Source of the DNA: Candidatus Micrarchaeota archaeon
GTDB lineage: Archaea > B1Sed10-29
DNA length: 4,495 nt
Reading direction: 5' to 3'
Assembly (NCBI GenBank): GCA_964388265.1
Contig: CAYLXZ010000040.1
Span: 1 to 4,495 of the forward strand
The notes beneath the pieces were generated by a model. It saw only the letters and a program-made list of their open reading frames with translations. It was not told the origin of the DNA and searched no databases. This document shows, piece after piece, positions 422-4,447 of the stretch. Every line of letters starts with the position of its first letter. Within the stretch, counting starts at the first letter, position 1. A program made the position numbers and the translations under genes.

Positions 422-1168
422 TTAGAGGTCGTATTCCCAGTATCCTCTTTGTTCTTCAACTATCCTTATCGTGGTTTCTCTTGGGTCTTTGGATTCGTAA
501 ATGGTTTTCCCGATTACTTCGAAGTTGTTTTCCCTTTCCAGGCAGTCTCCTGGTGAGGCTTTTCCCTCCTCGAAGCCATTGCAGAATACGAGCATGTCTT
601 TCTTGGTTAATTCATTGGCTTTCTTCAGGTCTTCTAGATGGTTTCCTGCTATGTCCACTCCATCTACATCTAGTTGATTGGCTAGTTCCGCGGTTTCTTC
701 GAATGCGTTCTCCATGAACCTGCTTTTCTCTTCGTGTGGTAGGCTGAGTGTTAGGATTAGGCCTTGGTCTGGGTATTCGTCCTGTATTGCTTTTATTGGT
801 TCTTTATCTATGAATGCTGGTATCGTGATGGCTTCGAATCCTGCTTCGTAGAGTTCACTAGCCATCCATAGTACATTTCTGTCTACGTCACAGAGGTTGT
901 AGTCAGCTATGAATGGTACGTCGAACCTTTTTATGACTTCTTCTATTCCTAGTATTCCAACTGCATCTCCAAATGACCTGTTCACCATTACTCCTGCGAT
1001 TAAGTCGTCTATTTCTTCTATTGTATCTACCGCTGTCTGTATCATCGTGGATTGATCTATGTCTTCGTGTACGGGTAGTGCTATGTCTAGATTGAAGATT
1101 AGGCTGGTGTTCTTCTCCTGTGCCTGGTCCATTAGTCTGTGGTTGAACGGTGTTTTCCTTGTATTCAT
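422..1168 (-). CDS. Orotidine-5'-phosphate decarboxylase (PyrF/HUMPS family)-like TIM-barrel protein with degenerate active site
   Basis: 248 aa, with motif order matching archaeal PyrF: LIFNLD (cf. LILALD), IADYNLCDV (cf. IADFKxADI), GFEAITIPAF (cf. GADAIIVHGF), LSLPH (cf. EMSH), FCNGF (cf. ISPGV), VIGKTIYESKDP (cf. IVGRSIYxAxDP). Strong GAGGAG SD 5 nt upstream. No gene symbol given because catalytic residues are missing. Confidence 0.85.
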   Translation of the reverse strand: MNTRKTPFNHRLMDQAQEKNTSLIFNLDIALPVHEDIDQSTMIQTAVDTIEEIDDLIAGVMVNRSFGDAVGILGIEEVIKRFDVPFIADYNLCDVDRNVLWMASELYEAGFEAITIPAFIDKEPIKAIQDEYPDQGLILTLSLPHEEKSRFMENAFEETAELANQLDVDGVDIAGNHLEDLKKANELTKKDMLVFCNGFEEGKASPGDCLERENNFEVIGKTIYESKDPRETTIRIVEEQRGYWEYDL

Positions 1169-1280: not shown

Positions 1281-1990
1281 ATGGAATCAAATATGGATAA
1301 AATGATCATTGGAATAATCCTAGGCACAGTCCTAATGCTNNNNNNNNNNGTTGCCTGGGACCAGGAGCACCAAGTGAAGAAAAACCGGAGAACGTTTACT
1401 TAGGATACTCAGACGCTGATGAACATGGATACATGAAAGCTAAAGTAACTGTAGAGAATGGGGATATATCAAGCGTTAATTTAACTGAGATAGATGAAAC
1501 CGGTTCAGTTAAAGGCGAGGAATATCCTCATGACGCGTTCCACGAAGCTATGGATAAACTGCCAGGGCGTTTCGTGGAGGCAGATAGCCATGAAGTTGAA
1601 GCAGTAACAGGAGCAACAGGAACTTCTGACAAGGCAATGCAAGCTGTGAAGAGAGCTCTGGAGAAAAAAGAGAACCCTGATGCTGTTTTTAATGGCACTT
1701 TCTTCGGAGCATCGGACAGTGAAGGAGAATCCAGGAACGTTGCCTGGGTAACAGTGGAAGACGGAGAAATCACGGACGTGAAACTGGAAGAGTACAAAGA
1801 TGCTGAGGAAGAAGAATTAAAGGATGAAAATTATTCTCACGACGCGTTCCACGAAGCAAAGGATAAACTACCAAGCCGATTCATAGAAGCAAACAGCCAT
1901 GAAGTTGAAATAGTAACAGGAGCAACTGTTAGCTCTGAAAGATGGTCCGAAGCAGTTAAGAAAGCTCTTGAGAAAGCAGGAATATCCTGA
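1281..1990 (+). CDS. Lipoprotein with two tandem FMN-binding (covalent flavinylation) domains; N-terminus spans a sequencing gap
   Basis: The frame of ORF 1433..1990 extends upstream without stops to the gap: (x)GT TGC CTG GGA = G?-C-L-G-P-G-A-P-S-E-E-K-P-E-N-V-Y-L-G-Y-S-D-A-D-E-H-G-Y-M-K. Left of the gap, ATG 1281 (alternatives 1293, 1302) reads MESNMDKMIIGIILGTVLML, a signal-peptide h-region. Each domain has the FMN_bind pattern (Y/F)xGxS...VTVExGxIxxVxL...VExVTGATxxS...AVKxALEK. Confidence 0.88.
1340..1349. other. Assembly/scaffold gap (10 N)
   Basis: Run of 10 n inside the predicted signal peptide coding region; the flanking frames are out of register across it. Confidence 0.97.
1529..1927 (+). 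repeat. Intragenic direct repeat: 1529-1618 and 1838-1927 (309-nt offset), C-terminal halves of the two FMN-binding domains
   Basis: Hand alignment: 75/90 nt and 25/30 aa identical (HDAFHEAMDKLPGRFVEADSHEVEAVTGAT vs HDAFHEAKDKLPSRFIEANSHEVEIVTGAT). Confidence 0.93.
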
Positions 1991-1996
1991 TAACCT

Positions 1997-4447
1997 TTAT
2001 TTATAGGTGTTCCAGGACTCTGTTTTTTCTATTTCTCCATTTTCCCTAATGCAGATTCCTTCAGTTCCCGCGGATTCAAGTATCTTTAAGCCTTTTTCTG
2101 GGCCTGCGACGAATGCACCTGTGCTTAGTGCATCGGCTTCTAGCCCTGTTTCACTCACTACAGTTACACTCAGGTATCCCTCCGCGGGTTCTCCAGTCTT
2201 TGGATTTATTATATGGTGGACTTTTTCTTCTCCTATCAGGTGATATCTTCTGTAGTTACCAGAAGTTGATACAGCTTTATTTTTAATCTGGATCTTCTCT
2301 ATTATCTCTCCTTGGTTTTCAGGGTCGGAGATCCCTATCTCCCACGATTTCGGTCCTATTGCTCTGATCTCTCCTCCTATATCTATGATAGCGTCTTTTA
2401 TTCCTTTTTTCCTCAGGGTTTCCGCGGCTCTGTCAGCTGCGTATCCTTTTGCTATTCCTCCTAGAGATATCTTCATGTCTTTTTTCTTGAGCCTGGCTCT
2501 GTTGTCTTCTTCATCTATCTCTAGGTTATCTAGATCAACTAGTTTCTGGTGTTTCTCCAGCTCTTCTCCCTTTGGTATTGTTCCTTTTTCTTTTACTTCC
2601 TTCATCCAGAAGTCCACGAGCGGTTTAACCGTGATGTCAAAGGATCCGTTGGTTAGAGATCCGTATTGCTTTGATTTCTTTAGGATCATGGTGGTTTCAG
2701 GTGAAATTTCAACCCACTCGCCTCCGGGTTCTTGGTTTATCTTGTATACATCGCTCTCCGGGTTACTTTCATCCATCTTTTTCTCTATTCTACGTATTTC
2801 TTGGAATGCTTCTTCTATGGCTTCTTTCCCGGTTTCTTTGTTGTAGGTAAGGATTTTTATTGATGCAACGGTATCCATTATCATTGGATCGGTTTTCTGT
2901 ACCTTTGACTTTTCGTAGACTTTTAATCCGTTGTCTTTCTTTATTTTGTAGTAGTTTTCTCCGTCTCTAATCTCCCATGTCTCGTTATTTAAAGTGGAGA
3001 CGGATGCTTCTTTGGAGAGCGTTCTTCCTTTTTCCTGGAACTTTTTCATGGTAGCTGATCCTATCTTGCTGGAGTTAATTTCCTCGAGCACTTTCTGTGA
3101 TTCATCTTCTTCGATGGTGAAGACATGTCCTTCTTCCACGGATGTTCTTGGAGCAAAGATGTTCATAAGAGCCCCGGATAGTAGGGTTAGAAGGGCAAGG
3201 ATAGTGATTCCTGTTACTATTTTTCCCCGTAGCCCCGACCCGATGGTTCTTGAGAACAGGAATAAACCCGCTAAGAGACCTAGTTGAATAGATAACATGC
3301 TGAAGGCAAGTCCTGTGATCCCTATATCCATATAGAAAGTGGTTATTATCCCTATTATCCCTACTCCGAGTCCGAAGAACCTGGAAAGCAGAACTGTCCC
3401 TGCTTTTTCTTCTGAAAACAATTTAGAGGATTTTATCCTTGCTAGAGTAGCTGGGATCACGGCAAGAGCCATTACCCTAACCGCGTTCACCCCCTCGAGA
3501 AAACCTGGAAACACATGAGAAGTTATGTAAGGCGCTGAAAGGAAAACGATGAAAGCCAATATCACAGAGAAGATGATTCCCAGTCTCTCGGTTTTTCCTG
3601 TTTTGTTTCCACGGGCTTTTTCAGGTAGAAGAAAGAAGAACAGAGTGTTTGGAAGAACAGCTAATAGAGTGAATATCCTGTAGCTGAATTGGTAGATTCC
3701 TAGTATAGCCATGCCTGGGAATAGGATTCCTATGAGGATTTTATCCATGAAGTGCATGGAGACCTTTCCGATGTTCGCGACCCAGGCCTTGAAGGAGAAA
3801 ACAGCTTTTTGTCTTAATTCACTGAAATCAAGGTTTCTAGGTAAGTAACGTAGTATTAATCCTCCGAAGAGGAAGTAAGAGGCTGCTAGTCCTCCTATTA
3901 TCCCTGCTATTGAACCTAAAACAAAATAGAGAACTATTGGAAGAACCAAGGCGGTTGAACGTGTGCCTATCCAGATCCACATGTATCTCTTGTATCTTCT
4001 TTTACCTAGTTCTGTGTAGAAGGTAAGGGAGAACAGAGCCATGGCTATGACTAGAAAACCGATGAGCCATGGAAAGGAAGAATCAACATATAGAAATAAG
4101 GACAGCGCGGTTATAGCTCCGACCAGTATGCTTGATATCAGTACTAGTGCCACTGACCCGGTTATTAGTGCTTTATCTTCTTCTTTGGGGTAGTAAGTGG
4201 CTATTGTTTTTCCTAGACCCATTACCGCGACTGTTGAAACCAGTGTTGCGATGGATATCAGCCAGGTTAGGTGTCCGTAGGCTGTTGGATGTAGAACCAG
4301 GACTAGAGTTAGCCAGAATGCAGTTCCGAGTAAGGTGGCGGTGGTTTGACCTATTCCTACGTAGGTTAATCCTTTTTTATCAGGTTCTTTGGGTTCTTCT
4401 TTGATTTCTCCAGGGGTTGCCATGGGGTAAATAATGGTTTTATCCAT
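1997..4447 (-). CDS. apbE: Fusion protein: MOP-superfamily (Wzx/MATE-like) membrane exporter + FAD:protein FMN transferase (ApbE/Ftp)
   Basis: One uninterrupted 816-aa ORF (alternative start ATG 4423). Residues ~26-400 have ~12 hydrophobic helices with Wzx/MOP-like motifs LHPTAYG, GLGKTIATYYP and DKILIG...LGIYQFSYRI...LLP. Residues ~410-431 form an additional TM helix. Residues ~520-816 carry ApbE motifs MDT, SDVYKIN, TNGSFDITVKPLVDFW, LGGIAKGYAAD, DIGGEI, WEIGISDP, AVSTSGNYRR, HHIINPKTG, SVTV and ADALSTGAF. The symbol applies only to the C-terminal domain. Confidence 0.92.
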   Translation of the reverse strand: MDKTIIYPMATPGEIKEEPKEPDKKGLTYVGIGQTTATLLGTAFWLTLVLVLHPTAYGHLTWLISIATLVSTVAVMGLGKTIATYYPKEEDKALITGSVALVLISSILVGAITALSLFLYVDSSFPWLIGFLVIAMALFSLTFYTELGKRRYKRYMWIWIGTRSTALVLPIVLYFVLGSIAGIIGGLAASYFLFGGLILRYLPRNLDFSELRQKAVFSFKAWVANIGKVSMHFMDKILIGILFPGMAILGIYQFSYRIFTLLAVLPNTLFFFLLPEKARGNKTGKTERLGIIFSVILAFIVFLSAPYITSHVFPGFLEGVNAVRVMALAVIPATLARIKSSKLFSEEKAGTVLLSRFFGLGVGIIGIITTFYMDIGITGLAFSMLSIQLGLLAGLFLFSRTIGSGLRGKIVTGITILALLTLLSGALMNIFAPRTSVEEGHVFTIEEDESQKVLEEINSSKIGSATMKKFQEKGRTLSKEASVSTLNNETWEIRDGENYYKIKKDNGLKVYEKSKVQKTDPMIMDTVASIKILTYNKETGKEAIEEAFQEIRRIEKKMDESNPESDVYKINQEPGGEWVEISPETTMILKKSKQYGSLTNGSFDITVKPLVDFWMKEVKEKGTIPKGEELEKHQKLVDLDNLEIDEEDNRARLKKKDMKISLGGIAKGYAADRAAETLRKKGIKDAIIDIGGEIRAIGPKSWEIGISDPENQGEIIEKIQIKNKAVSTSGNYRRYHLIGEEKVHHIINPKTGEPAEGYLSVTVVSETGLEADALSTGAFVAGPEKGLKILESAGTEGICIRENGEIEKTESWNTYK

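Follow-up and report, generated by a model that had tools for sequence, protein, structure and literature searches.

A rare fusion of a Wzx-type membrane domain with an ApbE flavin transferase and its possible role in FAD export

In this paper we looked at a fused gene found in a 4,495-nucleotide stretch of DNA from a Candidatus Micrarchaeota archaeon (B1Sed10-29; GenBank assembly GCA_964388265.1, contig CAYLXZ010000040.1), referred to below as the window. The gene encodes a single protein of 816 amino acids, in which a membrane domain of 12 helices is followed by one further helix and by an ApbE domain, that is, a flavin adenine dinucleotide (FAD):protein flavin mononucleotide (FMN) transferase. 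This architecture is real, rare and conserved, and it is apparently undescribed. Analysis of the protein sequence indicates, with near certainty, that the ApbE half is an outward-facing FMN transferase. The membrane half is strongly predicted to have the fold of Wzx/PST flippases, and we suggest tentatively, with somewhat less than even confidence, that it may be a Wzx-type flippase that was repurposed as an FAD exporter feeding the fused ApbE. The gene next to it encodes a probable ApbE substrate with two FMN_bind domains.

The fused protein and its distribution

The reading frame of the fused gene starts with an ATG and contains no internal stop codons (Table 1). The Pfam ApbE profile (PF02424) matches its C-terminal part with an E of 3.7e-85 and 286 bits, against a cut-off of 25.6, and residues 516-816 match the solved ApbE structures of T. 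maritima (1VRM, E 1.4e-49) and of Listeria FmnB (7ESA, E 3.9e-40). The motifs LGGIAKGYA, GGEIR, TSGNY, HHIINP and ADALSTG align with 1VRM and 7ESA. These results bear out the claim of an earlier note, made by a model that read the letters of the window, that one continuous frame joins a transporter to an ApbE domain with intact motifs. The NCBIfam equivalog PRK10461 gives 138 bits on the domain, which is under its cut-off of 498; judged by these scores, the domain is a member of the ApbE family but not a PRK10461 equivalog. In public databases the fused proteins are annotated as 'FAD:protein FMN transferase'.

The kinship of the membrane domain is visible by fold search only, and a profile of the family that was compared with PDB sequences found no MOP protein at E <= 1. 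An AlphaFold2 model covering residues 1-440, which was built from 90 sequences (pLDDT 90.4, pTM 0.87), shows 13 long membrane helices. In this model residues 24-401 are strongly predicted to form two six-helix bundles, which together make the 12-helix MOP fold of the Wzx/PST type. Among solved structures the Wzx flippase WzxE comes closest, both in Foldseek (E 4.1e-8, TM-scores 0.70/0.75) and in VIA-align (Z 33.4, root-mean-square deviation 3.1 Å over 373 residues), where MurJ reaches a Z of 28.1 and the MATE structures are in the range of 18-27 with a best value of 26.9. In the window protein the Polysacc_synt profile (PF01943) gives 20.2 bits on residues 25-268, which is below its cut-off of 28.2, and several fused and stand-alone relatives do exceed the cut-offs of PF13440 (Polysacc_synt_3) or PF01943. 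The neighbours of the membrane domain in a protein language model are clusters of oligosaccharide flippases. The MatE Pfam has no match in the window protein at E <= 0.1, and by hhalign the family profile gives an E of 0.69 (score 13.1) with E. coli YeeO and of 0.045 with WzxE. The earlier note had described a MOP/MATE-like domain of about 12 transmembrane helices. The MOP fold and the 12-helix core can be kept from this description, whereas the MATE label cannot, and the total number of helices is 13, with the extra one leading to the ApbE domain.

The orientation of the protein was predicted from its charged residues. With helix boundaries that were set by us, Lys and Arg add up to 26 in the predicted cytoplasmic loops of the window protein and to 0 in the outer loops, and in 40 fused homologues the means are 19.5 and 0.9, respectively. 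Because of this distribution across 13 helices, the N-terminal is predicted to be inside and the ApbE domain to face outward, on the same side of the membrane as the TGAT-bearing FMN_bind neighbour. In most homologues helix 13 is separated from the ApbE domain by about 10-20 residues. The window protein has an insert of ~85 amino acids after helix 13, which only P0001 and P0002, the homologues closest to it, share; this region (residues ~432-523) has no significant Pfam match. Scans for promoters and terminators gave nothing exceeding shuffled controls.

The fusion is not an artefact, because it recurs. In the databases 38 of the 41 relatives of the fused protein are fused as well, with sizes of about 600-800 amino acids, and by scanning 185,579 species genomes we found 22 fused loci, all of which are fused where the contig permits. 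Three short relatives (P0039-P0041) were considered as true split forms and were rejected, as their C-termini have the appearance of an ApbE that was truncated or frameshifted. This recurrence is a stronger argument than a Logan contig of 663 nucleotides (run X1, record 4), which may share the sample of the window and which bridges positions 2555-3217 without indels, a stretch that reaches from the first part of ApbE into helix 13. The stretch 3218-3346 is not spanned by any listed Logan piece, though some read depth is present. The junction had been singled out for checking in the earlier note, and a misassembly or chimera at this place was rejected since the fusion was found again in independent assemblies. 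The 22 loci belong to Hadarchaeota, Dehalococcoidia, Synergistota, Acetothermia and one unclassified archaeon, which represent at least four phyla and both domains of life.

A strong ApbE match exists in 17 of 66 Hadarchaeota genomes, and in 17/17 it is fused to the membrane domain; this tally sets aside one genome with a marginal ApbE score and 16 with sub-threshold matches. Sixteen of the 66 genomes have both the fusion and RnfD, one has the fusion alone, one has RnfD alone and 48 have neither. In the genome with the fusion alone (G035) the contig terminates inside rnf, and by reading the coordinates it can be seen that RnfD is on the same contig as the fusion, at a distance of up to about 4 kilobases (kb), in at least 11 Hadarchaeota genomes. 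The occurrence of the fusion in bacteria is sporadic. It was found in two of the 66 ApbE-bearing genomes (one unpublished genome, G313, is included in the 66) from a Dehalococcoidia sample of 301, as well as in Synergistota (3/251), Bipolaricaulota (1/184) and Chloroflexota (1/401). All matches to the membrane family in these last three samples are fused (3/3, 1/1 and 1/1).

Other observations were made in the same archaeal phylum. Weak ApbE matches (E 1e-4 to 1e-6) were seen in 16 Hadarchaeota genomes without the fused gene (for example, G018:C10 and G010:C50). They are located in frames of about 252-334 amino acids, mostly ~255, which may represent a distant ApbE-like family. The match to the membrane domain carries one in-frame TGA in the Hadarchaeota metagenome-assembled genomes (MAGs) G001:C51 and G008:C25 and a TAA in G063, which could be the result of a sequencing error, a broken copy or recoding.

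Conservation, relatives and gene neighbourhoods

Comparison of 33 non-redundant fused proteins gives a mean pairwise identity of 56% for TM1-TM12, 60% for ApbE and 31% for helix 13. With 56% in the core against 31% in helix 13, the core is free of the drift that would be expected of a passive anchor. Motifs that the whole family has in common, the stand-alone relatives included (D235-K236, Y252 and P266/P275), are preserved in the fused core, and the fused clade has a signature of its own: R257 replaces a Gln that is found in 82/83 of the distant and 4/4 of the near stand-alone relatives, and H53, P170 and F271 were likewise gained and are near-invariant. Based on the helices of the AlphaFold2 model, TM8 carries R257 in its outer half, and H53 is found where TM1 turns into TM2. 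According to the WzxE paper, TM1-2 and TM7-8 make up most of the cavity, and a periplasmic triad of R44, R239 and D262 may bind the pyrophosphate of the substrate. In the register of the local hhalign alignment, which is weak overall (hhalign probability 1.2%), R257 and WzxE D262 are three residues apart, or one helical turn; the proximity of R257 to the pyrophosphate site of WzxE is suggested by this register as a lead and not as a result.

An exhaustive HMMER search of 1.84 billion representatives gave 465 relatives of the membrane domain at E <= 0.001. These comprise the fused proteins and a stand-alone family of about 375-400 amino acids at 25-35% identity, whose members end after helix 12, show weak Polysacc_synt signals and carry 'O-antigen/teichoic acid export' labels. 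A phylogeny of the membrane domain and a census of genomes had been proposed in the earlier note; our trees and scan gave a single fused clade, 22 genomes with the fusion and one candidate for a split form (P0046). In a tree of 46 rows, 25 fused rows and P0046 form one clade (SH-aLRT 99) with Hadarchaeota at its base, and the window groups with P0001 and P0002. A FastTree of 198 rows agrees on a single fused clade, and the approximately unbiased (AU) test does not reject the monophyly of the fused proteins (p 0.136). Directly outside this clade are the stand-alone P0045 and L035, followed by the P0047 cluster. In L035, which is from a Hadarchaeota genome without ApbE or RnfD, the genes that come after it encode GT2, GT4, a pair of DegT aminotransferases and an oxidoreductase (GFO_IDH). 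A narrow alignment of stand-alone proteins gave five metagenome loci of the L035 group, two of which are uninformative because L037 breaks off at the gene and L040 lacks the length; the next genes in the other three encode GT2 (L038), GT2 and GT4 (L039) and UDP-GlcNAc 2-epimerase (L036). Because the nearest stand-alone relatives sit in glycan loci, the ancestor of the fused membrane domain was, by this comparison of sequences, almost certainly a glycan flippase.

The P0046 cluster (P0046 and P0251-P0253, from Chloroflexota MAGs) consists of stand-alone proteins of 387/461 amino acids that share H53, R257 and F271. Its position within the fused clade makes it a candidate for a split form. MBT9163224.1 and MBT9166153.1 are stand-alone proteins of the fused type that belong to this cluster, and the cluster was not found in the sample of 401 Chloroflexota genomes. 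In the distant stand-alone family, P0117, P0176, P0143, P0132 and P0141 have long extensions (629-1671 amino acids in total) with no Pfam match, and from their sequences it seems that this family of short flippases is prone to fusions.

The neighbourhoods of the 22 fused genes were surveyed in 149 crude open reading frames (ORFs) at a distance of up to 3.6 kb, with a threshold of E <= 1e-5. No glycosyltransferase or sugar-nucleotide family was detected in these neighbours (0/149). There are none among the ORFs of the window either, as the earlier note had pointed out, and the fused gene of the window is not a member of a glycan-biosynthesis locus. It was found that rnf genes adjoin the fused gene in 8/22 loci and that RnfD is ~3.5 kb away in two more. 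In one Dehalococcoidia locus (L005) a set of NrfD, 4Fe-4S and FMN_bind genes adjoins the fused gene, and the remaining 11/22 loci, several of which are short, have nothing flavin-related. The survey supports a context of flavinylation, rather than of glycan synthesis, for the fused genes.

A possible route for FAD and the competing explanations

ApbE uses FAD and Mg2+ to attach FMN to a Thr of the target motif, and adenosine monophosphate (AMP) is released outside. One of the questions that this raises is how the FAD, which is made inside the cell, reaches an enzyme that acts outside. To our knowledge, FAD export is known by two routes only, through MATE proteins (Bfe and YeeO) and through the ECF system EetB-FmnA of the Listeria type, and a transporter that is fused to ApbE offers a candidate for a third, one that can be put to the test. 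FAD is given as the donor of ApbE in the 2025 ApbE review and by Fang et al. (2017), and the latter called the source of extracytoplasmic FAD an open issue. Export of FAD or flavins was reported for the MOP-superfamily MATE proteins Bfe of Shewanella and YeeO of E. coli, the latter being annotated as 'FMN/FAD exporter'. It was also reported that the eetB genes of FAD exporters colocalise with apbE, that EetB occurs fused to its partner subunit (in the Listeria ECF system) and that EetB homologues exist in 4,214 of 31,910 genomes.

The mechanism that we tentatively prefer is that residues 24-401 act as a MOP transporter of the Wzx/PST type, whilst helix 13 brings the chain outward and the ApbE domain is held at the outer face. 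The 12-helix domain would export cytoplasmic FAD, which has a pyrophosphate like the substrates of the flippases, and the release of this FAD beside the tethered ApbE would couple export and attachment in one polypeptide. With FAD and Mg2+, ApbE would then move FMN onto the second Thr of the TGAT motifs. The putative clients are the neighbouring two-domain FMN_bind (lipo)protein in the window and RnfG and RnfD in the relatives. The fusion was likely created by read-through from an upstream flippase gene into apbE, whose signal anchor would have turned into helix 13. Archaea (Hadarchaeota) are the probable place of this event, after which the unit would have passed to a few bacteria. The scenario as a whole, in which a Wzx-type flippase became a dedicated FAD exporter (possibly a FAD-out/AMP-in exchanger), was welded to ApbE in Hadarchaeota and was handed to bacteria as a self-sufficient module, is a possible one, and we would stop short of calling it probable.

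We favour FAD export because the core is conserved like the enzyme, because the fused clade has its own signature and because the protein spread across both domains of life as one unit. In addition, the fused gene is the sole ApbE in 5/5 genomes that were checked, and of five fused-gene genomes (these are incomplete MAGs) only one gave a match to EetB, which marks the known ECF FAD exporter, so that an export route of their own may be needed. A separate canonical PST flippase is encoded elsewhere in 3/4 of the fused Hadarchaeota genomes checked, and the fused domain is therefore not the sole flippase in these cells.

Several points weigh against this reading, which is plausible on indirect, comparative evidence. 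The membrane domain is of the Wzx/PST branch and not of the MATE branch to which Bfe and YeeO belong, and because there is no MatE match and the hhalign comparison with YeeO is weak, Bfe serves as a precedent at the superfamily level only. The known substrates of Wzx/PST proteins are lipid-linked glycans. The earlier note had named the location of close homologues as a fact that would bear on FAD export, and here the picture is divided: the nearest unfused relatives are beside glycan genes in 4/4 loci with readable downstream sequence and none is beside apbE, whereas the fused genes themselves adjoin no glycan genes and adjoin rnf in 8/22 loci. These unfused relatives (P0045 and L035) are 45-47% identical to the membrane domain of the window, so that a switch from lipid-linked to soluble cargo would have come about with little change in sequence. 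The position of R257 and H53 in the cavity rests on the assignment of helices and on a weak alignment. An FMN riboswitch is absent near the fused genes (the window and 19 loci), and in the window the FMN_bind gene is convergent with the fused gene and is not co-transcribed with it, as its stop at 1990 faces the stop codon of the fused gene at 1997-1999. Finally, ordinary ApbE is present in 64/66 ApbE-bearing Dehalococcoidia genomes, and since most organisms with ApbE manage without the fusion, it is not needed for FAD supply in general.

Another option, which we consider unlikely, is that the core transports nothing and is an anchor or assembly scaffold that docks ApbE onto RnfD/E/A or onto NrfD-type clients, with FAD arriving by another route. 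Such docking would agree with the fused genes that are in or beside rnf clusters at 8/22 loci and with the co-occurrence with RnfD in Hadarchaeota; the strong conservation of the membrane helices could stem from protein contacts, and as a lipid or single-helix anchor suffices for ordinary ApbE (2025 ApbE review), a fusion to the membrane domain of a neighbour could be tolerated. Yet a mere anchor should drift in the way that helix 13 does, and the core keeps both its sequence and the motifs of the flippase family. Moreover, Rnf is not the neighbouring client in the window or in L005, where a soluble (lipo)protein takes this place, and the fused unit works in hosts of both domains of life, whose partners differ. 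It is also rather unlikely, in our view, that the membrane domain is an unchanged glycan flippase, which still flips a lipid-linked oligosaccharide and was joined to ApbE by a neutral read-through without any coupling. WzxE as the best structural match, the sister clade with its 4/4 glycan loci and 45-47% identity to the membrane domain of the window, and a cationic stretch after TM12, which is kept as in the stand-alone forms, are all in line with such a protein, and the WzxE paper reports that an arginine cluster at the C-terminus is essential to activity. On the other hand, no glycan family was matched by any of the neighbours of the fused genes, and another canonical PST flippase is available in most of the fused genomes checked. 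In Hadarchaeota the family tracks ApbE/Rnf (17 genomes), with one strong stand-alone match (G042) among the 49 others. The fusion remained intact when it passed as a unit from one domain of life to the other, and an otherwise invariant Gln was turned into R257 in the fused clade.

A transporter that is coupled to ApbE could also carry another cargo or work in another mode, such as export of FMN or riboflavin, exchange of FAD out for AMP in, or supply of Mg2+ or another ion. The evidence for coupling is equal for these and for FAD export, as the data do not single out a substrate, and the chemistry of ApbE does release AMP outside; we find these variants very unlikely, for FAD as the donor of ApbE is the simplest cargo and no evidence favours any of the alternatives.

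Neighbouring genes and known systems

The coordinates of the fused gene, of its parts and of neighbouring features are given in Table 1.

Table 1. Features of the window and of related loci (positions refer to the window unless a locus is named).
Feature	Position	Strand	Description or basis
Whole fused ORF	1997..4447	-	816 aa (amino acids): Wzx-like MOP domain, helix 13, linker/insert, ApbE
12-helix MOP-fold core, residues 24-401 (TM1-TM12)	3245..4378	-	AlphaFold2 model, WzxE fold match
Helix 13, residues 409-431	3155..3223	-	AlphaFold2 model; chain predicted to pass from cytoplasmic to outer side
Linker and ~85-aa insert, residues 432-523	2879..3154	-	Alignment of fused homologues
ApbE (FAD:protein FMN transferase) domain, residues 524-793	2069..2878	-	PF02424
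Two-domain FMN_bind protein, probable ApbE substrate	1294..1990	+	Likely start ATG 1294; ORF called 1433..1990
First TGAT motif ([S/T]GA[S/T])	1607..1618	+	Read from sequence
Second TGAT motif	1916..1927	+	Read from sequence
Spermine/spermidine-synthase-domain neighbours	L011:6787-9204, L019:7535-9892, L020:7595-9898, L021:7595-9892		

The neighbour of the fused gene matches the Pfam FMN_bind in two stretches (E 2e-20), and each FMN_bind domain has one TGAT motif, in which GAT is invariant across seven homologues. TGAT agrees with [S/T]GA[S/T], which we take to be the flavinylation motif. The frame from the ATG at 1294 gives the protein a hydrophobic N-terminal, and its homologues, of 220-276 amino acids, have signal peptides and, in some of them, a lipobox Cys. 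Because of the TGAT motifs and of the signal peptides and lipobox in its homologues, the protein is plausibly a secreted or lipid-anchored external client of ApbE. A flavinylation substrate next door had been noticed before, and the two FMN_bind domains with their two TGAT motifs agree with it; the gene, however, is convergent and is broken by a run of ten N (1340-1349) within the signal-peptide region. The frame from ATG 1294 and the downstream FMN_bind frame are one base apart, so the true length of the gap is not 10. In the Dehalococcoidia locus L005 a homologue of this protein (P0208) is encoded just upstream of the fused gene, after NrfD-like and 4Fe-4S genes. The other ORFs of the window encode OMP-decarboxylase-like and SNase-like proteins. 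The first of these (422-1168, minus strand) is an OMP-decarboxylase/HUMPS-family protein that has six database relatives and scores 72 bits against the PyrF equivalog cut-off of 208.

Some other genes accompany the fused gene in its relatives. A protein of 765-805 amino acids with a spermine/spermidine-synthase domain adjoins it in four loci from three phyla, and radical-SAM genes are found together with this neighbour in L011, L020 and L021. In Dehalococcoidia loci the fused gene is followed by PsiE (L001, L003 and L006) and by a cluster of the Mrp/Mbh antiporter type (L001, L003 and L007). In L001 and L003 it is preceded by TatC and an AMP-binding enzyme, downstream of RnfD, with TatA and RnfC also present in L001. 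The Dehalococcoidia contig of L005 has a thiamine pyrophosphate (TPP) riboswitch (71.7 bits) at L005:12891-12988 (plus strand), which lies downstream of the fused gene by about 700 bases.

In the article texts that were searched we found no published description of a transporter-ApbE fusion, which agrees with the statement in the earlier note that no characterised protein of this architecture was known. The passages retrieved from the flavinylation survey (eLife, 2021), the 2025 ApbE review and a 2024 preprint on flavinylated systems mention no such fusion. The survey counts about 15,000 bacterial genomes with components of extracytosolic flavinylation. According to the review, the ApbEs described so far are lipoproteins, single-anchor or cytosolic proteins, or proteins fused to their substrate in trypanosomatids. 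Proteins with 12 leading membrane helices may have been filtered out of surveys, which could explain why the architecture went unremarked.

If the FAD-export reading is true, the fused protein would be an independent solution for FAD export and the third to be known, with Bfe and YeeO (MATE) and EetB-FmnA (ECF) as the other two. Its cargo would be the first soluble cofactor among the substrates of the PST branch, and the protein would show that a flippase of the Wzx type is able to exchange a lipid-linked substrate for a soluble one that contains a pyrophosphate. As a machine for export and attachment in a single polypeptide it would mature Rnf and other outward-facing flavoproteins, and it could serve as a compact, two-in-one part for putting covalent flavins on surface proteins.

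By comparing the fused protein with known systems both common and distinct features can be seen. With ApbE, Ftp and FmnB it has in common the C-terminal ~300 residues, the predicted extracytoplasmic location and the FMN_bind or Rnf clients that are encoded nearby, but the window ApbE sits behind a 12-helix transporter domain and one extra helix. With WzxE and the other Wzx/PST flippases it shares the fold, the weak Polysacc_synt and Polysacc_synt_3 signals and a sister clade in glycan loci. It differs in that the membrane domain of the window is 14-16% identical to WzxE, belongs to a short family of archaeal type, is fused to ApbE and carries R257 and H53. Bfe and YeeO have the fold of the same superfamily and, if FAD is indeed exported, would do the same job, whereas they are stand-alone proteins of the MATE family that are not linked to ApbE. 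The closest functional analogue would be the EetB-FmnA-EcfA/A' system of Listeria, which is ATP-driven and unrelated in fold, yet follows the same logic of coupling export to flavinylation.

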